Positions 40,893 through 56,300 of a stretch of 64,000 bases of DNA are shown here, piece after piece. The first letter of the stretch is position 1; each line of letters begins with the position of its first letter. Under the pieces are notes generated by a model that was not told the DNA's origin, searched no databases, and saw nothing but the letters and a program-made list of their open reading frames with translations. The position numbers and the translations under genes were made by a program. Source of the DNA: an uncultured Planctomycetales bacterium (GTDB lineage: Bacteria > Omnitrophota > Gorgyraeia > Gygaellales > Profunditerraquicolaceae); the NCBI GenBank assembly GCA_964645795.1, contig CAZYCL010000002.1, forward strand, positions 16,352 to 80,351, given 5' to 3'.

Positions 40893-41024
40893 AACCCCTG
40901 CGCCTGCCTGAAGGTTTGTTGGCGCCCAATCCCCTCTTAAATATCCGCCTAAAACAAAAGGCAGCCATGCCCAGGATAAAAAACCAGGAGACCGCCATAA
41001 ATACCCAGCCCCACGGCTTCATCT
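40893..41024 (-). CDS. Possible small hydrophobic peptide of about 43 aa
   Basis: The ATG is preceded by GGGGAAG. The product MKPWGWVFMAVSWFFILGMAAFCFRRIFKRGLGANKPSGRRRG ends 4 nt before queH. It could be non-coding. Confidence 0.25.
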
Positions 41025-41041: not shown

Positions 41042-42253
41042 TTAGAGATATATCATATCACCGGAATGAAAAAGCGAAAGGAATAAAAGCAGATAGTCCT
41101 TAAGGTGGCGCGTCAGCAGGAAATTATTCTTGACGTGCTCCTTGCCGTTCTCTCCCAGTCTTCTGGCGTAGGCGGGACTATTGAGGATCTGCTTTATCGA
41201 AAATGCAGCACCCTCCACGGAGTGGCAAAGTAGCCCCGAGTATTTATGCTTGATCTGAAGCGGTATGCCTCCGACATTAGAGGCTACTACCGGCTTGGCT
41301 TTCCAGAGGGCTTCGGAGACCGTCAGGCCAAAACCTTCGCGCAGGGACTTCTGCAATATCACGTCTGAGGCCCTTTGCAGGGCGTTGACTTCGATGTCGT
41401 TATGCGGCAAGAGCAGCACGTGTATATCTTTGTCGCCCTTAGCCCTTTCCCGCACTTCATCCAATACCTGCAGCCCTTCGGGATCGTCGCTGGCAGTGCC
41501 TCCCGCAAGGACCAGCTGGCAATCGATATACTTTTTGACCCGGGAATACGCCTGTACTACGCCGACCGGATCTTTTAGCCGGTCAAAACGGGAGATCTGG
41601 GTGATCATGGGCTTATCCCTGGTCAGGCCGTATTTAGCCAGGACCGCACTGATCGTTTCCTCCGGCAGCTCCCTGTTTTTATCGCTTAACGGGTCGATCG
41701 AAGGAGCGATCAAGAACTGCCTTATGGGCAGGGGCCGGGAGAAAGAAGGAGCGGAGAAAACGGATGCGTCGTAACTTTTGATGAAATCCATCAGGAAACC
41801 CCATACCTGTTGGTTGGGATTGGAGACGTCGATATGGCAGCGCCAGATCCATTTATTGGAAGCCTTCTTCTCGATAAGCGCGATAGGTTGGGGGTCGTGA
41901 ATAAAGACCACGTCTCCGTAAGTTTCCACCTCTTCGATGTTCTTGCGGCTGGTCTCCATGAAGGCCTCGAAGTCCGCATCGCAAATCGGCTCCTGTTTGC
42001 CGTGAAGCAGATTATGGAACTTCTTGGTCACGTCAAAAAAACGCTCGCCGCCCTTGATCAGGTCCCAGCGCGCATCCACCCCCAGTTCTTTAAGCAGCGG
42101 GACCATGCGGTTGAGTATTTCGGCCACCCCGCCGCCGACCGAAGTGGAGTTGATGTTCTGGATGACCTTGCCTTGGAGCTTCTCGGCAAGCATCTTAAGG
42201 CCATCGACCAGTTCGCTTCCGATTATGGGAGTATAATCCTGTAATCCTGCCAT
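41042..42253 (-). CDS. treT: Trehalose glycosyltransferring synthase (TreT-type GT4 glycosyltransferase)
   Basis: Collinear with TreT: INSTSVGGGVAEILN, FFDVTKKFHNLLHG, WIWRCHID, ITQISRFDRLKDP and ASDVILQKSLREGFGLTVSEALWK. Confidence 0.75.
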   Translation of the reverse strand: MAGLQDYTPIIGSELVDGLKMLAEKLQGKVIQNINSTSVGGGVAEILNRMVPLLKELGVDARWDLIKGGERFFDVTKKFHNLLHGKQEPICDADFEAFMETSRKNIEEVETYGDVVFIHDPQPIALIEKKASNKWIWRCHIDVSNPNQQVWGFLMDFIKSYDASVFSAPSFSRPLPIRQFLIAPSIDPLSDKNRELPEETISAVLAKYGLTRDKPMITQISRFDRLKDPVGVVQAYSRVKKYIDCQLVLAGGTASDDPEGLQVLDEVRERAKGDKDIHVLLLPHNDIEVNALQRASDVILQKSLREGFGLTVSEALWKAKPVVASNVGGIPLQIKHKYSGLLCHSVEGAAFSIKQILNSPAYARRLGENGKEHVKNNFLLTRHLKDYLLLFLSLFHSGDMIYL

Positions 42254-42256
42254 TTT

Positions 42257-42922
42257 TTATGCGAACATCTGCGCTATTTTGATCAGAGTCAGCCTCAATT
42301 CTTCCATCGTATAAGTATAGGGGTCAAGCCGCGAGATCTTTTCCGCCAGCACTTTGTTACCCAAGGAAGAATCGATCCACCAGGAGAAATCATTGGTTGT
42401 CTTACCCAGGCGCAGGCGCGCTTCAAAGATATGGAAATAGAGAGAGTCAATGCCTACCTTCTTTAGTATTTCTACGAAATCCGCCAGATTGCTTGCCGTA
42501 TAAGAAGTAGGGAGGATAAAACTGACCGACTTTATGAAGTTGAACTCCTCTTCGCTCCTGCAGAACTTGAGCTTGCTTAAGGGGTTTTCCCCCAGGTAAG
42601 CCTCGATTATCCTTACAAACTCTTTCCTCAGGTCTTCCAGGCAGACGAACTGTATTACGTCGACACTGGCCAGCTCCTCGGCAAGCCTGTCTTCGCCCAG
42701 GGCCTCCGCCACCCAGTAAGAAAAGTCATTCGGCGGCTCAGGAGAAAAAGTCTGGTGCTGCTGAAGGAACCTGTGGGTGTGATGGTAGATGCAGGATTCC
42801 GGGACCTGCTTGACCAGGTCCAAGAGCTGGCCCAAGGTAGCGGCACGCAGCCCCGTAAGCTCGGTTAAATGAAGCCTGGTATAAAACCTGAAACCCTCTT
42901 TGGCCTGTTGATCCTGGCTCAT
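42257..42922 (-). CDS. Hypothetical protein embedded in the trehalose gene block
   Basis: 221 aa with no recognisable motif. It overlaps the otsB stop and sits 3 nt before treT. Confidence 0.5.
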   Translation of the reverse strand: MSQDQQAKEGFRFYTRLHLTELTGLRAATLGQLLDLVKQVPESCIYHHTHRFLQQHQTFSPEPPNDFSYWVAEALGEDRLAEELASVDVIQFVCLEDLRKEFVRIIEAYLGENPLSKLKFCRSEEEFNFIKSVSFILPTSYTASNLADFVEILKKVGIDSLYFHIFEARLRLGKTTNDFSWWIDSSLGNKVLAEKISRLDPYTYTMEELRLTLIKIAQMFA

Positions 42923-43725
42923 AATCTGGCGACCCTCAGCTCAAAAAACCTGTTCAACAAAACCCCTGTTTCCCTGCAGTTATTCAGGTAATAATCCGAA
43001 GAGAACGCTTTCTGGGGCTTGCCCACCAAAACGGTCAGGCCTTTTCCTTTGAGCGCCCTGAACGCGTCCTCATCGGTAGAGTCGTCTCCCAGATAAACGG
43101 CTAATACCTCTTTTTCGCAAGCACGCAGCTTCTCCCGGGCCAAAAGCCACATCACGGCCTTTGCCTTGTTCCAGGACAAAGACGGCCTGACCTCAAGCAC
43201 CATTTTCCCCGCCTTTACGGCCACCCTGCCCTCCCTAACATAAGGGGCCAGGACATCACGGAACCTTTTTTTAAGCAGCGCCTGCTCGCTTTTGCGGACT
43301 TTACGGTAATGCAGGGACAACGTAAAATCTTTATCCTCAAGTATCGCCCCTTTAATGCCTTCCAGGGCGCATCTTAGCCCAAAACAGATCTCCTTGATCT
43401 GCTGCTTTAGCTGCGGGCTCATGTAGCTGTTGAACTTTATATACGGACCCTCTATCTCCATGCCGTGATTGCCGCAGTAAACGATACCTTTGAGCTGGAT
43501 CTTCTCCTTTATATCAGCCAATGACCTGCCGCTTATAATAGCCAGCCTTACCGAAGGCAGCACCGAGATGGCCGCCAGGGTAAGCCGCACCTCCTGATGG
43601 ATAAGCGCTTTCTCCGGAGAAGAGACGATAGGGGCGAGCGTGCCGTCGTAATCAAGAAAAAAATAGACGTGCTTTCCGGCAAGCTCCCGGGAGACCTTCT
43701 TCCAGTCCTTGAATAGATGCCTCAT
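42919..43725 (-). CDS. otsB: Trehalose-6-phosphate phosphatase (HAD family)
   Basis: HAD motif I FFLDYDGTLAPI, plus motifs III/IV (LGDDSTDEDAF). Confidence 0.8.
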   Translation of the reverse strand: MRHLFKDWKKVSRELAGKHVYFFLDYDGTLAPIVSSPEKALIHQEVRLTLAAISVLPSVRLAIISGRSLADIKEKIQLKGIVYCGNHGMEIEGPYIKFNSYMSPQLKQQIKEICFGLRCALEGIKGAILEDKDFTLSLHYRKVRKSEQALLKKRFRDVLAPYVREGRVAVKAGKMVLEVRPSLSWNKAKAVMWLLAREKLRACEKEVLAVYLGDDSTDEDAFRALKGKGLTVLVGKPQKAFSSDYYLNNCRETGVLLNRFFELRVARL

Positions 43726-43728
43726 CCC

Positions 43729-45960
43729 TTAAGCCTTCCTTAAAGAAACCAGCTCCGTGATTATGTCCCCGGCCCAGCGATAGACGTTGTTCTCCTTTAT
43801 CATATTGCGCATGCTTTCCATGCGTCGCGCCCTTTCTTCCATGGGCATCTCCACCGCCGTTTTTATGGTGTCGGCAAACTCCTCGATGGCGTAAGGATTT
43901 ATCTGCAGGGCATCATTAAACTCCCGGGCCGCTCCGGTAAAACGGCTCAATATCAGGACCCCGTTAAGATCGGTCTTGGAAGCTACATACTCTTTGGCCA
44001 CCAGGTTCATGCCGTCATGCAGGGAGCTTACGATACAGATATCCGCAAGGCTGTAAAACGGCAGTATCTCATCGGCGGAAAAATGCTTCTTCAAGTATAT
44101 TATCGGCATCCACTCCCCGTCGGAGTATTTCCAATTCTTTTTTTCCACCAACTCGTCGATCTCTCCCATGAGGTCATGGTAGCGTTTGATATGGGTGCGG
44201 CTGGGAGCGGCAAGCTGTACCAGGACGAATTTATTGCGGTACTGCGGGTACTTTTCGATGAACCTGTCCACCGCCATGATCCTCTCCGCCAGCCCCTTGG
44301 TGTAATCAACCCTGTCCACGCCTACGGCAACAATCTTATCCTCCAGGCCGAACTCCTTACGGATGACCTCTATCTTTTTCCTGTCGGACTCCGGGATGCT
44401 GGAAAGGCAACCCGCTACGCTGATAGGAAAAGATTTAACCATGGTTTCTTTGCCGAAACGCACCACGCTGAACTTCTCCGTATCGACCCTGGATTCAAGA
44501 AGCCTGTTTGCGGTATCAAGAAAGTTATTGCAGTGGTTCTGAACATGAAAGCCGATCAAGTCGCAGGACAACATCCCTTCCAGTATCTGCTCCTGATAAG
44601 GACAAGTGGCAAAGACCTCCGGATTCGGCCAGGGTATATGCCAAAAAATGGCAATTATGGTATCGGGACGCTTTTCCTTGATGAACTTGGGCAGGAGGGT
44701 AAAATGGTAATCCTGGACAAAGACAAACGCCGGTTTGTTCGGAAGCTCCTCCAGAAGGCTTTCGGCAAACTTGCGGTTTGCCTTCTCGTACATCTTCCAG
44801 TCGTCTTCCCGGAAGATCGGACGGGTATGCGTGATGTGACAGAGCGGCCAAAGGCCTTCATTTGAGAAACCGTAATAATAACCTTCCTCTTCTTCCTTGG
44901 TAAGCCATACACGTTTTAAGATATAGCGCTCATCCTTCGGAGGCACACCCAGCTTATTCTTGGAGTTGACGAATTTTCTATCGGCATTGCCGCTTCCGTG
45001 GCCCACCCACATGCCGCCGCAGGCGCGCAGTATCGGGTCTAGCGCCGTAACTACGCCGCTTGCCGGCCGGAAGCATTTGTAATTACCCGTGGCCTCATCT
45101 ATCACATGCATGTACGGCTCACGGTTGGAGACCACGAATAAAGCGTTATCTCCGAGCTTGGCCCTGATAAGATCACGAAGTTTAGCCTCAGTCCAGATCT
45201 CTTCTTTGGCGATGCGCTCCGCGGCCTTATCGGATACTACCCGTCGGGCAACCCGCAGGCTAAGGGCTATCTGTTCTACTTCGCTGGCAAGCTTGCCGAG
45301 GTCGTCTTTAGCCTTAATGGGATGGGGGATATCGGTCTCGCCTTTCTGGAAGTAGTGAAACCACTCCGTAAGCCTTTTAACCGGAAGGATGAATATCCTC
45401 CATTGTATAAGCAGCATGGTCAGGAGTATCAGCACCAGAAGGGTGATCAGCGATATGCTGATACGTCTCCAGAGCTCCGCAATAATCGAAAACACATAGG
45501 AAGTGTCGTAGACCACCTCGACCAGGCCCAGGATATTATTTTCTTCGTCTTTAACCGGCAAAATATAGCTATATACCGAAAGCTCCCTGAACTGCTCCAG
45601 CGATGCGCGCGGCTGTTTTTTCTCGATTATCTCTCTAAGATATGGCTTGTCCTTTTCTCTCCACTCCGCCAGCCTCTCGGTTATAGCTATTATCTTGCCT
45701 TCCTTGTCGTAGATAACGCAACCCTGAAGCCGCTCCCTGTTCTGAAAGCTCTCAACCAGGCGTTTGGCGCTCTTCAGGTCGTTTTCGGAAAAAATATGTT
45801 TTGCCGTAGCCTCGATACTCTCGTCCACCGCCCTGGCTTTCCTTTTCAAATCATCCATCAGCCGCTCTTCTTCAAAGCGGACCTGACGCACCCCGAAGAT
45901 GGCGAACACCGCGGTAACGATTATCAGTATCGGCAGTATGAACAAAAGCAGTCTTTTCAT
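43729..45960 (-). CDS. otsA: Trehalose-6-phosphate synthase (GT20) fused to an N-terminal TM / extracytoplasmic domain / TM / HAMP-like module
   Basis: Residues 1-260 contain a TM (LLLFILPILIIVTAVFAIFGV), a soluble domain of about 140 aa, a second TM (ISISLITLLVLILLTMLLIQW) and a HAMP-like helix pair. From about residue 270 the sequence is GT20 OtsA (FVVSNREPYMH ... WHIPWP ... SLHDGMNLVAKEY). Confidence 0.85.
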   Translation of the reverse strand: MKRLLLFILPILIIVTAVFAIFGVRQVRFEEERLMDDLKRKARAVDESIEATAKHIFSENDLKSAKRLVESFQNRERLQGCVIYDKEGKIIAITERLAEWREKDKPYLREIIEKKQPRASLEQFRELSVYSYILPVKDEENNILGLVEVVYDTSYVFSIIAELWRRISISLITLLVLILLTMLLIQWRIFILPVKRLTEWFHYFQKGETDIPHPIKAKDDLGKLASEVEQIALSLRVARRVVSDKAAERIAKEEIWTEAKLRDLIRAKLGDNALFVVSNREPYMHVIDEATGNYKCFRPASGVVTALDPILRACGGMWVGHGSGNADRKFVNSKNKLGVPPKDERYILKRVWLTKEEEEGYYYGFSNEGLWPLCHITHTRPIFREDDWKMYEKANRKFAESLLEELPNKPAFVFVQDYHFTLLPKFIKEKRPDTIIAIFWHIPWPNPEVFATCPYQEQILEGMLSCDLIGFHVQNHCNNFLDTANRLLESRVDTEKFSVVRFGKETMVKSFPISVAGCLSSIPESDRKKIEVIRKEFGLEDKIVAVGVDRVDYTKGLAERIMAVDRFIEKYPQYRNKFVLVQLAAPSRTHIKRYHDLMGEIDELVEKKNWKYSDGEWMPIIYLKKHFSADEILPFYSLADICIVSSLHDGMNLVAKEYVASKTDLNGVLILSRFTGAAREFNDALQINPYAIEEFADTIKTAVEMPMEERARRMESMRNMIKENNVYRWAGDIITELVSLRKA

Positions 45961-47028
45961 TTATGACTTTTTCTCCTGTTCGTAATTGATCGCCCGGATG
46001 GGATATGGAATGATTATGCCTTCTTTGGCGTAACGCCGGTGGAGGCGCTTTATGAACTCGTGCTTAATAAGATACTGGTCCACGAACTCCAGCGCGCGCA
46101 GTATCACCGTAAAGTTTATGCTGAAAGCGTCGAACGTATGATACCGGATAAAAGGATCGAAGCCTGCCACCCCGCCCTGGACTTCCTTCATTACTTCCTT
46201 TGCCACCTCGCAGGTAACCTTCTCGACTTTTACCAGGTCACTGTCATAATGCACCCCGATGTTTATAAGGACCGCCATCTCTTTGTCCGGCAGATAAAAA
46301 TTGGTTATGATGGCCTTGGCCAGCTTTTCGTTGGGCACCAATACCACATTGTTAGGCAGCATCCTTATCTTGGTAGTACGCCAGCTTATATCGGTGACGT
46401 AACCCTCCTCTCCCGACTCTATCTTGATATAGTCGCCGATCTTTACCTGGCGGGCGGCAATGATATGGAAACCGGAGAAAAGATTAGACAGGGTATCCTG
46501 AAGCGCCAGGGCAACGGCCAGGCCTCCTACGCCAAGCGTTGCCAATATGGGGGTGACCGAAATACCCAGGCTGTTGAGTATAATAAGGATACCCAGGCCG
46601 AAGATTATTATGCGGGCTACGTTGCGGCTAAGGGACGATACTGCTACGGCCGTGCTGAACTTGCGCGCATAAAGCTTTATCAGGCCGCTGGATAAATTGG
46701 CAAGCGTAAACGTCACCGAAAGTATGCCCAGGACCAAAAGCAGGCGGCTGAGGAACTGCGCTACCGGATCGGAGACGGTAGCCGCCTTTACCCCAAAGAA
46801 TATACCCAACATGATAAACCACAGGATAAAAGGGTGCTTTATGGACCCGAGTATGACATCGTCAAGCTCGCTCTCGGTCCTCTTAGACCAACCTAACAGC
46901 TTGAAAAACAATATCTTGCGAAGTATATATCCGAAAATGACCGTTAAAAGGAAGACGGCAGCCGGGACAGCCAACATCAGAGATTTATCGAGCAATATCT
47001 GTATATAATCCTGCATTCCTACCTCCAT
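45961..47028 (-). CDS. Mechanosensitive channel, MscS family
   Basis: 355 aa with N-terminal TM helices and the MscS pore-helix/beta-domain region (GLGILIILNSLGISVTPILATLGVGGLAVALALQDTLSNLFSG). Confidence 0.8.
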   Translation of the reverse strand: MEVGMQDYIQILLDKSLMLAVPAAVFLLTVIFGYILRKILFFKLLGWSKRTESELDDVILGSIKHPFILWFIMLGIFFGVKAATVSDPVAQFLSRLLLVLGILSVTFTLANLSSGLIKLYARKFSTAVAVSSLSRNVARIIIFGLGILIILNSLGISVTPILATLGVGGLAVALALQDTLSNLFSGFHIIAARQVKIGDYIKIESGEEGYVTDISWRTTKIRMLPNNVVLVPNEKLAKAIITNFYLPDKEMAVLINIGVHYDSDLVKVEKVTCEVAKEVMKEVQGGVAGFDPFIRYHTFDAFSINFTVILRALEFVDQYLIKHEFIKRLHRRYAKEGIIIPYPIRAINYEQEKKS

Positions 47029-47088
47029 AAAAAAGCCGGCACCTGCAAATTCTGCAGATGGCCCACCTGCAACTTTTTGTGTGTTTTC

Positions 47089-47118
47089 ATTATAGGCGTT
47101 TTCCTACCGGATTTCAAT
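47089..47118 (-). promoter_or_regulatory. Possible promoter (TTGAAA-18-TATAAT) with a leader of about 70 nt ahead of mscS
   Basis: The reverse complement of 47089-47094 is TATAAT and that of 47113-47118 is TTGAAA. The leader holds direct CACCTGCAA repeats and a U-run before a GGAGG SD. Confidence 0.3.
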
Positions 47119-47194: not shown

Positions 47195-47560
47195 TCAACC
47201 TAAAAGCCTGTTTACTTTTCTAACCAGCTCGGAGATATTCTCGGATTTACAGTAATAGTCATCGGCGTCAAATACCGCCAGCTCCTGTTCTTCTACCGGC
47301 CAGACGCTTGCTACCATGACCTTTATCCCGGGAAAATCGTTCTTTATCCTCTCATAAAGATCCATCCCGCTGGAAAACGGCAGGATGAGATCAAGGATGA
47401 CCAGATCCAAACCTTCCTTTCTGAGGAGCTCCAGGGCATCCTGCTGGCTCTGCGCACTCAGACAGCAGTAACCCGCGTCTTTGAGCTTGCGGGAAAAGAT
47501 CTCTATTAAACCCCGCTCATCCTCTATGATCAGTATGCGCTTCTCCTGCTTCTTCGTCAT
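47195..47560 (-). CDS. Stand-alone response-regulator receiver protein (CheY-like)
   Basis: 121 aa; D-D-K receiver signature (ILIIEDE..., LDLVILDLILP). Confidence 0.75.
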   Translation of the reverse strand: MTKKQEKRILIIEDERGLIEIFSRKLKDAGYCCLSAQSQQDALELLRKEGLDLVILDLILPFSSGMDLYERIKNDFPGIKVMVASVWPVEEQELAVFDADDYYCKSENISELVRKVNRLLG

Positions 47561-47912
47561 GGCCTATCGTATTACGCACCAGTTTTAAGAGTGAGTGTAT
47601 CCCCTGCGACTTGTCAAAGTATCCCTGGGCATCGGGGATATGCTTCTTCTGCTCTTCGACAGGGTAAACGCTGGCAACAATTACCTTTGTGTAATTGTGG
47701 AACAGCCTGATTATCTCATAGAGCGTCACCCCGTCGACTTCCGGCATCTTGATGTCCAGGAGGACGAGGTCAAACTTTTCTTTTTTGAGCTTATCGTTGG
47801 CCTGAACGGGATCAGTCACCCCTACAACTTCACACTCCGCCGAAGACAGAAGCCTGCTGAACACCCAGTTGATCTTCTGCTCATCATCTACTATGAGGAT
47901 GCGCTTTTTCAT
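47517..47912 (-). CDS. Stand-alone response-regulator receiver protein (CheY-like)
   Basis: 131 aa; receiver signature (ILIVDDE..., FDLVLLDIKMP). Overlaps the next gene by 44 nt. Confidence 0.75.
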   Translation of the reverse strand: MKKRILIVDDEQKINWVFSRLLSSAECEVVGVTDPVQANDKLKKEKFDLVLLDIKMPEVDGVTLYEIIRLFHNYTKVIVASVYPVEEQKKHIPDAQGYFDKSQGIHSLLKLVRNTIGHDEEAGEAHTDHRG

Positions 47913-48003: not shown

Positions 48004-49455
48004 TTAAGGCAGGGGCAGCTTTACCGTAAAGACAGAGCCCTCGCCGTAGCGGCTGGAAACCGTAACCTGGCCGCCATGGGCCTTGGCGATTGACTGACAG
48101 ATACTTAGGCCCAGTCCGCTTCCGGGTATTTCTTTGGCTTGAGGCTGGCGCGTCCTGTAGAACTTCCTGAACAGGTTCGGCAGCTCTTCTTGCGGTATGC
48201 CTCTTCCTGTATCGGCGATCAAGATATGCGCGTCGTTGCCGGAAAGCTCCAGCTTCAGGTCTATCCTGCCGCCTTCGGAGTTGAACTTCATGGCATTGTC
48301 CAGAATATTGAAGAAGAGCCTGCGCAAGGTAAGCTTATCCCCTTTTATGTATAACGGACCGGCAGGAAAGCTGCAATTAACGGTAATTTTCTTTTTGGCC
48401 GCCAGGAGCTTGGCCTGCTCGCAGATCTCGCCAAGAAACTCCGTCAGCTCGAACTCCTCGGATTTAAAGGCATCTTTTTTGAACTCGAGCCTGGTAAGCA
48501 ATAGCAGCTGATCTATGGTCACCAGCATCCTTTCGGCTTCCGCCAGGACCTCTTCCATTGCCGACTTGTACTCTTTTACGGACCTGTCTCTTTCCAGGGC
48601 CAACTCCGCCTCTCCCCGGATTATGGCCAGCGGCGTCTTTAGCTCATGAGTGGCGTAAGCAGTGAAGTCGCTCATGTACTGGAAAGAGTTCTCCAGACGG
48701 CCAAGCATATCATTAAAAGAATCGGCCAAAAACCGCATCTCTTCGTCCATACGTTCAGTCTTGAGGCGGCGGCGCAGGTCTTTGTAAGATATGCCCCTGG
48801 CCGTAATGGCGATATCCATGACGGGGTTGAGTATCCTTATGATAAAAAGCCTGCCGATGAGGCTGGCCAGGACAAGGACGATGGAAAGGCCGATGAGATT
48901 TTGTTTTAATCTGCTGGTCAGAAGATTGTGTATGCGCTCTATATCGACTCCCGCAAACAGGATGTAGGCGCCATCCCCTCCCCGGGAAACGGTCCTGCGT
49001 ATAAACCTTAACGCATGATTCTGGTGATGAAGGTTATAGATTTGGTTTCGCTGCCAGTTACTCTTATAAAAAACCGCCTTTATCTGCTCGGGGATGTTCT
49101 CCGTAACGTATATGAGCCTGCCCGCGCTATCCAAAACGCAGACATAAAGCTCGTCATTAGCGGGATAAGAAGCGGCCTGGGCCGCATCATCCTGGCTATT
49201 TTTAAGCAGCTCGATGCGCGGCGTAACTCCTTTTACCGCCGAGACCAGCGCATCCGCATCCGCTTTCTCAGCCGATAATCCGCTGCTAATAGCAAAGGCT
49301 ATCTCTTCTGCCTTAAGCTGGAGCGTGGCGTCCACATGCGAGTAGAGGCTGCGGTACAAACTGATAAATAAAGCCCCCCTGTAGATAATAAGGATCCCCC
49401 CGAGGATAAGAACATATAATACCGTGATCTTGAATTTTATGGAGCTAAACTTCAT
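48004..49455 (-). CDS. Sensor histidine kinase (TM / periplasmic / TM / HAMP / HisKA / HATPase_c)
   Basis: H-box ATHELKTPLAIIRGE, plus N, G1 and G2 boxes (DTGRGIP, GSGLGLSI). Confidence 0.85.
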   Translation of the reverse strand: MKFSSIKFKITVLYVLILGGILIIYRGALFISLYRSLYSHVDATLQLKAEEIAFAISSGLSAEKADADALVSAVKGVTPRIELLKNSQDDAAQAASYPANDELYVCVLDSAGRLIYVTENIPEQIKAVFYKSNWQRNQIYNLHHQNHALRFIRRTVSRGGDGAYILFAGVDIERIHNLLTSRLKQNLIGLSIVLVLASLIGRLFIIRILNPVMDIAITARGISYKDLRRRLKTERMDEEMRFLADSFNDMLGRLENSFQYMSDFTAYATHELKTPLAIIRGEAELALERDRSVKEYKSAMEEVLAEAERMLVTIDQLLLLTRLEFKKDAFKSEEFELTEFLGEICEQAKLLAAKKKITVNCSFPAGPLYIKGDKLTLRRLFFNILDNAMKFNSEGGRIDLKLELSGNDAHILIADTGRGIPQEELPNLFRKFYRTRQPQAKEIPGSGLGLSICQSIAKAHGGQVTVSSRYGEGSVFTVKLPLP

Positions 49456-49457
49456 TT

Positions 49458-50126
49458 TTACATCTTAAGAATATATCCTACGCCGCGGATGGAGCTTATC
49501 AGGTTGGTCTTAAATCCGGAGTTTATTTTCTTACGCAGGTTGTTGATATGGACATCGATGACGTTGGAGAAGCTGTCGAAATCCTCATTCCAGACATGCT
49601 CCGATATCATCGTACGGGTGATGACCTCGGTGGGATTGAGCATAAAATACTCCAATAACGCGTATTCTTTGGCCGTAAGCGGGATCGGTTTTCCGCATCG
49701 TCTTAGCTGACGCGTAAGCTGATCCAGCTCCAAATCCTCGAATTTAAGCAAGCTGGTCTTCTGCTTCCTGTTCCTGCGTAAAAGCGCCCTGACCCGGGCC
49801 AGGAACTCCGAAAAAGCAAAAGGCTTGGCAAGGTAATCGTCCGCCCCGCAATCGAGTCCGACAACCGTATCCCTGACGCCGTCTTTGGCGGTAAGGATCA
49901 GCACCGGGGTATCGATCTCTTGTTTCCTGAGTTTTCGGCAGACGGACAGGCCGTCTTCGCCCGGCAACATTATATCCAGTATGATAAGGTCGTAGGGGTT
50001 GGTCTCTGCCAAAAACAGGGCGTTTTCGCCGTCATAGGCCAGGTCAACCACGTAACGCGCCTCTTTCAGGCCCCTGCGGATGAAGCTGGCGATCTTTTTT
50101 TCGTCTTCCACTACCAGGATTCTCAT
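49458..50126 (-). CDS. OmpR-family response regulator
   Basis: Receiver domain (ILVVEDE, LIILDIMLP) followed by a winged-helix DNA-binding domain. Confidence 0.85.
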   Translation of the reverse strand: MRILVVEDEKKIASFIRRGLKEARYVVDLAYDGENALFLAETNPYDLIILDIMLPGEDGLSVCRKLRKQEIDTPVLILTAKDGVRDTVVGLDCGADDYLAKPFAFSEFLARVRALLRRNRKQKTSLLKFEDLELDQLTRQLRRCGKPIPLTAKEYALLEYFMLNPTEVITRTMISEHVWNEDFDSFSNVIDVHINNLRKKINSGFKTNLISSIRGVGYILKM

Positions 50127-54068: not shown

Positions 54069-56300
54069 CTATTCTAGTTTGCGCAGTATCTTCTGTGTCT
54101 CGAAGGCCTCGATTACGTCGCCTTCTGCGATCTGATCGTATCCGGCGATGCTCATGCCGCATTCAAAACCTTCCGCCACATCCCTTACATCATCTTTGAA
54201 GCGCTTGAGGGATGAAAGCTTGCCTTCGTGAATGACCTCTCCGTTACGCACCAGGCTTACCTGCGACTGGCGGTTGAATTTACCCTTGGTAACATAACAG
54301 CCGGCGATGATGCCGCGGGTCAGCTTAAAGACCTTGCGGATCTCCGCCCGCCCCAAGAAAACTTTCTTGAGCTTCGGCTCAAGCATGCCTTCGATCGCCG
54401 CCCTCAATTCGTTGGCCAGCTCATAGATAATATTGTAGATCTTTACGTCTATGCCTTCCTTATCGATCATCTCTTTGGCCCGCTCATCCGCCGAGATATT
54501 AAAACCCATGATCAGGGCGTCGGATGCTACCGCCAGCACGACGTCGGAAGTATTTATGTTACCTACCCCGCTATGTATCAGCTGGATCTTGATCTCCGTC
54601 GCGGGTATCTTGGATATCACGTCCTTTATCGCCTCCAGCGACCCCTGTACGTCGGCCTTAAGGATTATCTTAAGCTCCCTTATTTTTCCTTCTTTTATCT
54701 GGATATGCAAATCCTCAAGGCTTACGCGCTTGATAGGCATCGTGGAGAGCTCTCTCTGGGCCTGCTGCCTCCTGGCTGCGATATCTTTTGCAAGCTTCTC
54801 ATCCTCTATAACGTAGAACTGTTCTCCTGCCTCGGGCACTTCGGTAATACCGAGGACCTCCGCTGCTACCGATGGTCCGGCGCTGGCGGTATTCCTGCCG
54901 CGGTCATCGAACATGGCCCTGATCTTTCCGTAGAAGTTACCCACCACTATATTATCATTCAGGCGAAGAGTGCCGTTCTGGACAAGAAGAGTGGCTACCG
55001 GGCCCCTGCCTCTCTCCATTTTTGCCTCAATCACTATCCCTTTGGCGCTACGGTCGGGGTTTGCCTTAAGCTCGAGCATCTCAGCCTCAAGCAGGATCAT
55101 CTCCAGAAGATTATCTATGCCTTCTGCGGTCTTGGCTGAGACCGGCACGACAATGGTCTTGCCTCCCCAATCCTCGGCAAGCAGGTCTTTGGACTGGAGC
55201 TGCTTCTTGACCCGGTCCGTATCCGCCTGAGGCTTATCAATCTTGTTCAGGGCTACGATTATAGGCACGCCGGCGGCCCTGGCATGGTCGATGGCCTCTT
55301 CTGTCTGAGGCATAATGCCGTCATCGGCGGCAACCACCAGGACCACTAGGTCCGTGACCTGCGCACCGCGGCCGCGCATGGCGGTAAATGCCTCGTGTCC
55401 CGGGGTATCCAGGAAAGTTATCTCGCCTTTCTGCACCCTGACTCTATAGGCGCCGATATGCTGGGTGATACCGCCATGCTCTGACTCGGCGACCTTGGTC
55501 TTGCGGATAGCATCAAGAAGCGAAGTCTTGCCATGATCGACATGGCCCATGAAAGTTACTATGGGAGAGCGCGCTTTCAGTTTTGAAGGGTCGTCTTGCT
55601 GCTCGTGAAGCTGGAAAGCCTGTTCGTCCTGGGTAAGCGCTTTTTTGATGACGCATTTATATTTGGCGCATATCTTCTGCAGCACATCTTCCTGCAGGGT
55701 ATGGTTGATGCTGACCATCACTCCCATGCCCATCAGGTCCTTTAAGATCGCCGACGGCTTTTCCTGAAGCTTCACTGCCAGATCCTTGACCGTGATCGGC
55801 AGCTCCAGCTCAACTTCACGCCTGCCCGCAGGAATGCCGGGCTCAATTGGGGCCACAGCCTGGGGTTCTGGCGTTGCAGGCTTGACAGGCGCGACGGACT
55901 TTACGACATGCTTATGAACAGGCGGCTTGTGTACTTCCGGCCTGGCCGGTGCCTGAGGCGCGGGTATCTCGATCTTGGGACGCTCTTCTATTTTAGGCTT
56001 TGGAGTATGGACTGCCGGCCGGACAACCGGCGCAGCCACAGCCTCCTTGGGGGCCTCTTTAACTACGGCAGCCTGCGGATGATGCTTGGGCGCCACGTGC
56101 CTGGCCGCAGAAGGCTCAACCTTAGCCTTGATGGCAACCTTGGGTTTTAGGCCGGCAGTTTTCTTTTCGGCCGGCGGCTTAGGCGCGATCTTCTTTGCGG
56201 CCGGGGCTTTTACGGCCGCAGCCTTCTTTATCCTGGGTTTCGCATCGACCGGTTTCTTGGCCTTATCGACGGCTGCTTTTATTTTTTTATCCTTGATCAT
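54069..56300 (-). CDS. infB: Translation initiation factor IF-2
   Basis: Low-complexity A/K/P-rich N-terminus followed by G-domain motifs ([18 protein letters not shown]) and C-terminal IF-2 domains. Confidence 0.95.

Follow-up and report, generated by a model that had tools for sequence, protein, structure and literature searches.

A trehalose-6-phosphate synthase carrying a transmembrane Cache-HAMP module: a predicted receptor-type enzyme of Omnitrophota

Why should a trehalose-6-phosphate (T6P) synthase carry a membrane-spanning module at its N-terminus, and could that module control the enzyme? The coupling of osmolarity to compatible-solute synthesis in bacteria is understood mostly in terms of transcription or of salt effects on soluble enzymes. 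In the stretch of Omnitrophota DNA analysed here (64,000 nucleotides, hereafter the window), a single open reading frame on the minus strand (43729..45960) encodes a receptor-type trehalose-6-phosphate synthase of 743 aa, followed by a stop codon. The first-pass annotation had read this protein as a sensor kinase in which the kinase was replaced by OtsA. We find it plausible that osmotic or envelope conditions act on T6P synthesis directly, through the protein itself. We lean towards a one-polypeptide transmembrane receptor-enzyme in which HAMP output would gate T6P synthesis, the most probable stimulus being hyperosmotic or envelope stress. In this reading we infer that HAMP signals as a dimer, that catalysis is regulated and what the signal is.

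The gene begins with an ATG that abuts the TAA stop of the preceding MscS-like gene, and a GGAG motif lies 12 nt 5' of it. The encoded domains follow the order TM1, periplasmic single-Cache/PDC domain, TM2, divergent HAMP, helical linker and complete GT20/OtsA domain, all on the minus strand. Kyte-Doolittle hydropathy (19-residue window) has exactly two strong peaks in the 743 aa, corresponding to TM1 (45889..45951, aa ~4–24, maximum 3.14), just after Lys2-Arg3, and to TM2 (45385..45462, aa ~167–192, maximum 2.95). The stretch between them, of ~140 aa as the first-pass annotation had proposed, holds the sensor domain (45472..45879, aa ~28–163). In AlphaFold models, which describe the monomer only, TM1 is one helix running on into the periplasmic domain and TM2 lies within a continuous helix, 154–206. 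The HAMP (45241..45384, aa ~193–240, with the Pfam match at 189–236), the fixed-length helical linker (45142..45240, aa 241–273) and the GT20 catalytic domain (43732..45141, aa 274–743) complete the protein. The proposed succession of a HAMP-like segment and GT20 also stands, as the helix-loop-helix that follows TM2 is collinear with a kinase HAMP and GT20 starts at 274. No HisKA or HATPase_c domain was found in the 743 aa by Pfam or NCBIfam; the protein is not a kinase and has only the input half in common with sensor kinases. A second open reading frame of exactly 743 aa in the window (54069..56300) encodes IF-2, the equal length being coincidental.

The otsA gene is part of a cassette with the order mscS-otsA-otsB-DUF5752 (OrfY-like)-treT (41042..47028, minus strand), spaced by 3-nt gaps or 4-nt overlaps. 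The first gene encodes an MscS-family mechanosensitive channel of 355 aa (45961..47028), with Pfam MS_channel_1st, _2nd and _3rd above their cutoffs. The otsB gene (42919..43725) starts 3 nt past the otsA stop and encodes a T6P phosphatase of 268 aa (Pfam Trehalose_PPase, E 1.9e-42; NCBIfam T6PP, 156.4 bits, cutoff 68). It overlaps by 4 nt the gene for a DUF5752 protein of 221 aa (42257..42922; Pfam E 6.4e-68), an OrfY homolog that matches PDB entry 4CSO, described as "ORFY protein, transcription factor" (E 4.2e-25); our literature search on DUF5752 found nothing relevant. The last gene (41042..42253) encodes a TreT-type trehalose glycosyltransferring synthase of 403 aa (Pfam TreT_GT1, E 1.7e-54; PDB 6ZJ4, E 1.5e-122, and the TreT structure 2X6Q, E 2.7e-101). 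A sigma-70-like promoter candidate (47089..47117, minus strand; TTGAAA-17-TATAAT, 11/12 matches, a consensus match only) lies in the 166-nt gap between a REC gene (47195..47560) and the start of mscS (47028). On the other side, 3' of treT, a hairpin followed by a T-run resembles a terminator (40959..40972, minus strand), a pattern match only, as such sites are no more numerous in the region than in shuffled sequence.

Related loci were compared in a sample of 80. The scan that supplied them matched 264 species genomes, most of them Omnitrophota, a count that covers the Omnitrophota-type family only, as the scan used the close-family alignment. In this sample mscS lies directly 5' of otsA in 22 loci and between otsA and otsB in 10, so that it belongs to the cassette in 32/80 and is missing from it in more than half. 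OtsB is encoded 3' of otsA on the same strand in 59 of the 66 loci with enough sequence, and the order otsB, DUF5752, treT is retained in 50/56. The cassette also occurs in another flanking context. It is not kept in distant clades, and the two-component system and REC genes beside the cassette in the window are not conserved there in relatives.

A cassette of similar content is known from Thermoproteus tenax, in which msc-gt-tpsp form an operon and a coupling of trehalose synthesis and release in osmotic stress has been proposed (PMC3634074). The T. tenax enzyme is a TPS-TPP fusion whose TPS becomes active when it forms a complex with GT (PMC3634074). Both cassettes bring together genes for TPS, TPP, a GT4-family glycosyltransferase and an MscS-type channel, the cassette described here holding the msc-gt-tpsp gene content plus an OrfY-like gene and treT; its DUF5752 protein is an OrfY homolog and its GT4 enzyme is TreT. 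They differ in that otsA and otsB are separate genes here and the TPS carries a sensor module. Kouril et al. in 2008 reportedly placed treT and orfY as neighbours in T. tenax. Because the cassette also encodes TreT, a putative regulator resembling OrfY and an MscS channel, we read it as a trehalose and turgor module. The osmotic reading rests on association, since most of the loci lack MscS in the cassette and distant clades do not keep the cassette itself.

The sensor module itself has clear relatives among histidine kinases. Residues 2–240 are matched by the NCBIfam models that describe the N-terminal halves of the kinases WalK, CreC and BaeS, and the nearest relatives of the module that lack GT20 are sCache_3_2-HAMP-HisKA-HATPase_c kinases. 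The profile of the module aligns with one HAMP-HisKA-HATPase_c kinase, P0357, at 98.7% hhalign probability and without gaps, 12–255 to 12–255. The neighbouring histidine kinase in the window (48004..49455), whose kinship would have hinted at a common signal, was ruled out as a paralog of the module (hhalign probability 0.5%). In the periplasmic part, the N-terminal fragment scored 27.5 bits with Pfam dCache_3 (cutoff 25.7), covering half of this double-domain profile, and 24.3 bits with sCache_3_2 (cutoff 28.4), which gave 21.7 on the full protein. The AlphaFold model of the Cache domain (pLDDT ~77–93 per 10-residue block) has strands at 79–84, 90–93, 118–124, 127–137 and 143–152, and between the two TMs it shows the Cache/PDC layout, in which a long N-terminal helix leads into an antiparallel sheet flanked by helices. 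Superposed with Foldseek on solved WalK extracellular domains, it gave target-normalised TM-scores of 0.72–0.78 and rmsd values of 2.6–3.3 Å (0.76–0.78 for 4ywz/7dud), with further matches to CitA (0.73–0.78), DcuS (0.69) and KinD. One variant of the family has a tandem-duplicated sensor domain.

Sensor-kinase architecture with the kinase replaced by OtsA is thus an accurate description, because the nearest relatives without GT20 are Cache-HAMP-HisKA-HATPase kinases collinear over 12–255; the NCBIfam matches, the WalK superposition and the hhalign result agree. The protein thus resembles the WalK/YycG-type sCache-HAMP kinases in its homologous, collinear first 255 residues, in a periplasmic fold closest to WalK and in a topology that places HAMP immediately after TM2, but it lacks HisKA, HATPase_c and the phosphorelay, and from ~256 a short helix and GT20 stand where the kinase core would be. 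Moreover, those kinases phosphorylate a response regulator, whereas the output here would be a metabolic reaction.

What the Cache domain perceives bears on the main alternative, in which the protein is likewise a receptor-enzyme but the stimulus is a small molecule bound in the Cache pocket (a carboxylate, a sugar or another metabolite) that reports nutrient or host status, with trehalose serving as carbon store or protectant. We consider this unlikely, yet worth keeping in mind. Among the closest folds are PDC domains that bind ligands, namely those of CitA, DcuS and KinD, and residues R75, E76, R77, Q79, C81, Y84, T94, R96, W100, Y130, Y132, E148 and D152–Y155 are invariant or nearly so in the Omnitrophota-type family, as expected of a pocket; F72, Q79, G80, C81, Y84, T94, Y132, P135 and G145 are invariant in the close family. 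Periplasmic residues are not conserved between clades, and therefore there is no single conserved ligand site. These differences would fit diverged ligand specificity, and the tandem duplication of the sensor domain in one variant is also in keeping with ligand sensing. Against this, the best structural match is WalK, for which we know of no established small-molecule ligand, and the linkage to MscS, together with the T. tenax precedent, points to turgor.

A second alternative concerns the N-terminal module as a whole, and the segment between the membrane and the enzyme bears on it. HAMP domains have as their hallmarks an AS1 helix that starts from a conserved Pro, a flexible connector and an AS2 helix with a conserved Glu, over ~50 residues. 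In the present protein AS1 (PVKRLTEWFHYFQKG) is followed by a connector and by AS2 (DDLGKLASEVEQIALSLRVAR), and the AlphaFold models show the segment after TM2 as a helix-loop-helix, 154–206 and 220–251 (mean pLDDT ~84), with the hallmark features of a helix to 205–206, a loop at 207–219 and a helix from 220. P193 is kept in at least 90% of sequences, W200, E227, L235, W256, T257 and L261 are invariant across phyla, and hydrophobic residues recur at a spacing of 3–4 from L224 to I250 on direct reading of the sequence. The Pfam HAMP model (PF00672) scored 14 bits on this protein (E 0.067, profile positions 5–52 of 53), below its cutoff of 25. It is reached by some homologs, including three of 13 distant family members (best E 1.8e-6); the HAMP of kinase P0357 (Pfam E 1.3e-15) is collinear with the segment by hhalign, and the NCBIfam SiaA model matches the region weakly. 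Around the linker, which holds the invariant W256-T257...L261 motif, the model has a helix at 220–252, a break at 253–257, a helix at 258–269 and a β-strand at 274–278, and the segment from AS2 to GT20 aligns with hardly any gaps even in relatives that share just 22–32% identity in the N-terminal module.

On the second alternative, the module would have lost its signalling and be a mere membrane anchor, dimerisation device or scaffold, which seems to us rather improbable, as does its corollary that the inner membrane is where T6P and trehalose are made, either to be close to MscS or to protect the membrane. The divergence of this HAMP speaks for it, as does the fact that GT-B enzymes are not known as HAMP outputs, and the T. 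tenax enzyme is controlled by complex formation with GT, without a sensor. An anchor would, however, leave a 136-aa periplasmic domain needless, although it is kept at ~69% identity, with HAMP at 77%. The near-invariant length of the linker, the invariance of W256, T257 and L261 across phyla and the retention of the signature HAMP residues P193 and E227 likewise argue against a simple anchor.

The catalytic half is a complete GT20 domain. Pfam GT20 (Glyco_transf_20) matches residues 274–737 with E 1.4e-123 and 413.6 bits (cutoff 32.5), over profile positions 3–471 of 473; the OtsA structure 5JIJ matches the domain at E 2.5e-86, and the GT20 model superposes on the OtsA/Tps1 structures 5L3K, 5HVL, 1GZ5 and 6JBR with TMt 0.85–0.89 and rmsd 3.1–3.8 Å (Foldseek). 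The catalytic motifs SNREP, SGVVTAL, YYxGFxNxxLWPLxH, QDYH, WHIPWP, DRxDYxKG, PSR and DGMNLVAKE are invariant and all align with Mycobacterium thermoresistibile OtsA; their residues we take to make the substrate contacts assigned from E. coli OtsA structures. R280, G302, W371, D417, H441, R550, K555, R588, D649 and E657 are invariant in 37 family members. The protein thus shares with soluble OtsA/Tps1 enzymes (5JIJ, E. coli 1GZ5) a GT-B fold, 30–35% identity, all catalytic motifs and an adjacent otsB. It differs from them by 273 extra N-terminal residues, which anchor it in the membrane as an integral protein and add a periplasmic domain, and from 5JIJ by an 8-residue insertion near 328–335. 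The domain is predicted to make trehalose-6-phosphate from NDP-glucose and glucose-6-phosphate, an activity to which the neighbouring OtsB, above its equivalog cutoff, lends indirect support.

That the product might instead be glucosylglycerol-phosphate or another sugar-phosphate disaccharide is a very doubtful proposition. It draws on the NCBIfam equivalog cutoffs for OtsA, which were missed (TIGR02400, 428.8 vs 564.85 bits; PRK10117, 267 vs 759), as was that of the bifunctional-enzyme model PRK14501 (482.1 vs 634), and on a match to the GgpS model (318 bits). Nevertheless, the OtsA models score highest among the NCBIfam matches, each of the top PDB matches is a T6P synthase, the next gene is above the T6P phosphatase equivalog cutoff and TreT is encoded in the same cassette.

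The fusion is widespread in Omnitrophota, where hundreds of species have it, and recurs in metagenome-assembled genomes labelled Acidobacteriota and Methylomirabilota, the distant clusters including two with the former label and one with the latter. Relatives that are 22–32% identical in the N-terminal module begin GT20 at ~residue 275, and the architecture is the same at an identity of 25–30% there. When 30 close homologs are compared pairwise, identity averages 69% over the periplasmic domain, 67% over TM2, 77% over HAMP, 69% over the linker and 79% over GT20, and every part of the protein appears, from these alignments, to be under selection. A search with the first 275 aa gave only short or partial proteins, which the full-length search and the loci identified as truncated gene calls, not stand-alone modules. 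Both transmembrane helices are present and residues 1–270 are conserved as part of the fusion, and the idea that a frameshift, mis-assembly or read-through joined a sensor gene to otsA, to which we attach next to no credence and for which we found no support, is refuted by the two halves being contiguous and in one frame in 80/80 independent genome loci, by more than 120 proteins of 740–759 aa from many assemblies that match at 71–77% identity over 97–100% of the query, and by a 100% identical protein recorded on a 345,694 bp contig at NCBI.

Returning to the receptor-enzyme under osmotic or envelope control, this reading gains plausibility because the MscS linkage is conserved and the linker length is near-invariant. 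Points against it are the HAMP score below the Pfam cutoff, the missed TIGR02400 cutoff for OtsA and the divergence of periplasmic residues between clades. The N-terminus would be cytoplasmic, TM1 leading out to the periplasmic Cache/PDC domain and TM2 back in to HAMP, from which the AS2 helix, of fixed length, would run into the first β-strand of the cytoplasmic GT20. By analogy with the homologous sensor kinases the protein is probably a dimer. A periplasmic or membrane stimulus may then alter the HAMP bundle, and the rigid linker, which enters GT20 ~10 residues ahead of the conserved SNR motif, could relay this change to the N-lobe of the GT-B fold, where the acceptor binds, switching catalysis on or off without transcription. 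OtsB would dephosphorylate the T6P product, TreT would offer a second route to trehalose, the OrfY-like protein may act as a regulator and MscS as a solute release valve, making the whole cassette a putative self-contained trehalose and turgor module.

Other enzymes are known to be coupled to HAMP, among them class III adenylate cyclases (Rv3645), GGDEF/EAL proteins and PP2C phosphatases (SiaA). In these, as would hold for the protein described here, the catalytic domain is under direct control of a TM-HAMP module that belongs to the same chain; however, those are signalling enzymes, which make, destroy or modify a messenger and whose activity depends on dimer geometry, whereas the output here would be a biosynthetic Leloir glycosyltransferase with its active site inside one monomer. 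Kinases, cyclases and chemoreceptors use dimer geometry as output, while the GT-B active site lies within one monomer, and we know of no experimental or structural precedent for a HAMP domain regulating a GT-B enzyme. Our literature search found no paper on a Cache-, HAMP- or TM-fused OtsA/GT20. We therefore put forward, tentatively, that this may be the first transmembrane Cache-HAMP receptor with a direct Leloir (GT-B) output, a one-protein osmo- or envelope sensor that could turn synthesis on within seconds.

If this is true, compatible-solute synthesis would be switched on without transcription or a second messenger, and the HAMP repertoire would extend to enzymes with monomer active sites, through a coupling unlike that of kinases, cyclases and chemoreceptors. 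The protein would be a minimal system with its input (a periplasmic or membrane stimulus) and its output (UDP release, T6P) in one polypeptide, so that the coupling question could be put to a direct test in vitro. Work on signalling would gain a way to ask if HAMP is able to drive enzymes that do not rely on dimer geometry for catalysis, as well as a new output module for engineered receptors. In databases the fusion is annotated as plain "trehalose-6-phosphate synthase", a flat label that the receptor-enzyme architecture corrects. The conservation of the mscS-otsA-otsB-orfY-treT cassette suggests that control of trehalose and turgor is a core trait of the Omnitrophota, a group still largely uncultured.

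The receptor-OtsA ORF (43729..45960, minus strand) encodes 743 aa and is the second gene of a five-gene cassette on that strand, mscS-otsA-otsB-DUF5752-treT, in which neighbouring genes are separated by 3 nt or overlap by 4 nt. No spacer separates its ATG from the TAA stop of the gene before it, and a GGAG lies 12 nt 5' of the ATG. Kyte-Doolittle analysis of the whole protein gave two strong hydropathy peaks and no more, at residues ~4-24 and ~167-192, which bear out the two TM helices claimed in the first-pass annotation; the helices were assigned from these peaks together with the helices of the AlphaFold model. A complete GT20 domain occupies residues 274-737 (Pfam, E 1.4e-123), placing the catalytic domain behind a sensor-type N-terminus as had been claimed, and the earlier description of the protein was accurate in all measurable respects. 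The N-terminal module is ignored in public annotations.

Pfam searches with the N-terminal fragment showed similarity to the Cache clan at residues 31-162, with dCache_3 at 27.5 bits, barely over the cutoff and covering only half of the profile, and sCache_3_2 at 24.3 bits, under the cutoff. Among NCBIfam models, WalK, CreC, BaeS, ArsS and MtrB align only via their N-terminal sensor/HAMP parts. In the AlphaFold model of the module (40 homologs as input, mean pLDDT 84.5; all our models are monomers), a single helix runs from TM1 into the periplasmic domain, residues 50-152 form a five-stranded sheet with flanking helices, an unbroken helix at 154-206 comprises TM2 and the first HAMP helix (AS1), and a loop at 207-219 precedes a helix at 220-251. 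Foldseek against the PDB ranked WalK first, followed by KinD, CitA and DcuS; the integrative full-length WalK model matched with E 1e-10 over 260 columns, and crystal structures of the WalK extracellular domain with target-normalised TM-scores of 0.72-0.78 and rmsd of 2.6-3.3 A. The lone periplasmic cysteine, C81 (RERLQGC, nt 45718-45720), is invariant across a 40-sequence Omnitrophota-type alignment, whereas distant clades have L, V, I or M at this position; it could be a clade-specific pocket residue or a redox-sensitive one. P0111, an 864-aa variant, has the periplasmic domain tandemly duplicated (its residues 1-179 match query 1-154, and 178-863 match query 58-742), which gives it a double-Cache-like sensor. 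Its 90% cluster holds six 864-aa members, each on a separate contig, and a 469-aa 'Candidatus Schekmanbacteria' entry which looks like a truncated gene call.

Hyperosmotic or envelope stress is the most probable signal for this domain, an assignment that we hold loosely because the MscS gene is present in only ~40% of cassettes, because periplasmic residues vary between clades and because PDC domains often bind small ligands. A specific metabolite ligand as the stimulus is less likely.

The segment following TM2 had been called HAMP-like. The window sequence falls under the Pfam HAMP cutoff (14 vs 25 bits), although its match at residues 189-236 covers the entire profile; the HAMP is divergent. 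This identification is made because the module profile aligns without gaps, 12-255 onto 12-255 (probability 98.7%), to the kinase P0357, in which Pfam finds a strong HAMP at 188-236 and, after it, HisKA and HATPase_c; because some homologs do reach the Pfam model; and because signature residues are retained, with W200 and E227 invariant across phyla and P193 present in at least 90% of sequences. All seven long relatives lacking GT20 that were scanned are Cache-HAMP-HisKA-HATPase_c kinases, and the homology thus bears out to the letter the description of the protein as a sensor kinase in which OtsA has taken the place of the kinase.

The coupling region is the most informative part of receptor-OtsA. 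The full-length model (mean pLDDT 84.3) has the second HAMP helix (AS2) running on as one helix as far as residue 252; residues 253-257 (EEIWT) form a short break and 258-269 a further helix, directly after which comes the first GT20 strand (274-278, LFVVS), ahead of the SNR motif. Hydrophobic residues recur at 3-4-position spacing from L224 to I250, as read off the sequence. The stretch from AS2 to VVSNR is nearly gap-free across clades with 22-32% identity in the N-terminal module, with a one-residue deletion in 3 of the 7 distant sequences compared, and W256, T257 and L261 are invariant across those clades. One would expect a fixed-register helix with invariant anchor residues if the region transmits a signal mechanically, but not if it is a passive tether, and it is quite improbable that the N-terminal module is a mere membrane anchor or scaffold. 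Among close homologs, mean pairwise identity is highest in GT20 (79%) and HAMP (77%), with 69% in both the periplasmic domain and the linker and 67% in TM2; no part of the protein is decaying.

Over its catalytic half, receptor-OtsA shares 30-35% identity with OtsA/Tps1 enzymes of solved structure (E 2.5e-86 vs 5JIJ); the model of this half superposes on those structures with TMt 0.85-0.89, and donor- and acceptor-binding motifs are invariant within the family. It does not reach the strict NCBIfam OtsA equivalog cutoffs, as expected of a divergent, fused member; the product of the next gene, OtsB, exceeds that for T6P phosphatase. We accept receptor-OtsA as a predicted T6P synthase, pending assay, and consider a product other than T6P very improbable. 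The GT20 N-lobe contains an 8-residue insertion relative to M. thermoresistibile OtsA (KFVNSKNK, residues ~328-335, nt ~44956-44979), near which model confidence is lower (pLDDT <50 at 302-305).

An assembly or frameshift artefact, which lack of conservation of residues 1-270 would have indicated, is refuted, as in 80/80 loci retrieved the module and GT20 are joined without interruption in one reading frame. The full-length search returned >120 proteins of 740-759 aa (71-77% identity, 97-100% coverage), most labelled Candidatus Omnitrophota and annotated merely as 'trehalose-6-phosphate synthase', and when one genome per species was scanned, 264 proved to encode a close relative of the N-terminal module. 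Exhaustive HMMER with the N-terminal 275 aa yielded 799 cluster representatives at E <= 1e-3; nearly all relatives that are 25-33% identical and long enough carry GT20 from about residue 275 (for example P0242, P0270, P0298, P0312 and P0342). Two of these distant clusters have members labelled Acidobacteriota/Terriglobales and one Methylomirabilota; the fusion is old enough to span several phyla. Longer forms were also seen, P0237 (913 aa) with ~170 residues ahead of the sensor module, and P0391 and P0393 with 827 and 826 aa vs ~750 in other distant members. Modules 59-70% identical occur in MAG records titled Planctomycetia/Planctomycetales, Spirochaetes, Elusimicrobia, Nitrospirae, Kiritimatiellae or Actinomycetota (loci L011, L019-L022, L034, L036, L039, L041, L042, L047, L048, L053, L057 and L076), probably as a result of misbinning, mislabelling or recent transfer, because identity to Omnitrophota sequences is high.

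In the cassette, an MscS-family channel gene (45961..47028, minus strand, as are all those following) comes first, and otsA is followed by otsB (42919..43725), the DUF5752 gene (42257..42922) and treT (41042..42253). The last encodes a clear TreT-family GT4 synthase (E 1.5e-122 to 6ZJ4, 2.7e-101 to 2X6Q). The DUF5752 protein is clearly homologous to OrfY, deposited as PDB 4CSO under the label 'ORFY protein, transcription factor' (E 4.2e-25); our literature search found no paper mentioning DUF5752, and the protein is possibly a regulator, or a partner of TreT/OtsA. A sigma-70-like site (11/12 matches) 5' of the cassette and a terminator-like hairpin 3' of it are pattern matches only, and terminator-like sites in the region are no more numerous than in shuffled sequence. 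The presumptive 5' leader, 3' of the promoter-like site and ahead of the MscS start codon, contains a 9-bp hairpin with a T-rich stretch behind it (47040-47060, minus strand), which may be a leader structure or attenuator, or may be chance. OtsB lies downstream in 59/66 loci with enough downstream sequence, and the order otsB-DUF5752-treT is kept in 50/56. Among the 80 loci, the MscS gene is directly 5' of otsA in 22 and between otsA and otsB in 10; it shifts position in, for example, L029, L040, L064, L070, L071 and L073, and is replaced by a more distant paralog (24-28% identical) in L008, L012, L026, L027 and L078. A 72%-identical relative has the cassette within wholly different flanks, and in distant clades only OtsB is sometimes found near receptor-OtsA.

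Just 5' of the cassette are two overlapping single-domain REC genes (47195-47912) and an HK/OmpR pair (48004-50126), all on the minus strand; comparison rejected the HK as a paralog of the sensor module. REC/RR genes also lie immediately 5' of distant receptor-OtsA genes (L089, L088, L006), that of L089 (136 aa) ending 14 nt before it. They are not conserved upstream among close Omnitrophota loci, and the proximity may be coincidence. Translation initiation factor IF-2 is encoded by another ORF of precisely 743 aa (54069-56300, minus strand), the equal length being coincidental; the region around this ORF, with genes for NusA, a TrpRS/TyrRS-class synthetase, ScpA, RuvB, a CDF transporter, QueA, QueH and SpoIID, is ordinary chromosomal.

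We propose that receptor-OtsA would act as a dimeric receptor-enzyme, in which the Cache domain and TM helices would read a periplasmic or membrane stimulus, HAMP would convert it, and the fixed-length helix would carry the signal to the acceptor-binding GT20 N-lobe, gating T6P synthesis. OtsB would then finish trehalose synthesis, with TreT as a second route, OrfY as a possible regulator and MscS as a release valve. Among described systems, the msc-gt-tpsp operon of T. tenax comes closest, a proposed osmotic stress module joining trehalose synthesis to an MscS-type release valve, in which GT switches on the synthase by forming a complex (PMC3634074). Trehalose synthesis genes have already been noted in Omnitrophota, with the fusion unmentioned (PMC8542988). 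Our literature search found no paper linking a HAMP, Cache or TM sensor to OtsA/GT20. To our knowledge, the HAMP outputs so far described comprise kinases, chemoreceptor signalling domains, cyclases, c-di-GMP enzymes and PP2C phosphatases, and no biosynthetic glycosyltransferases. All the parts are known; what is new is their combination and the HAMP-to-GT-B coupling that it implies.
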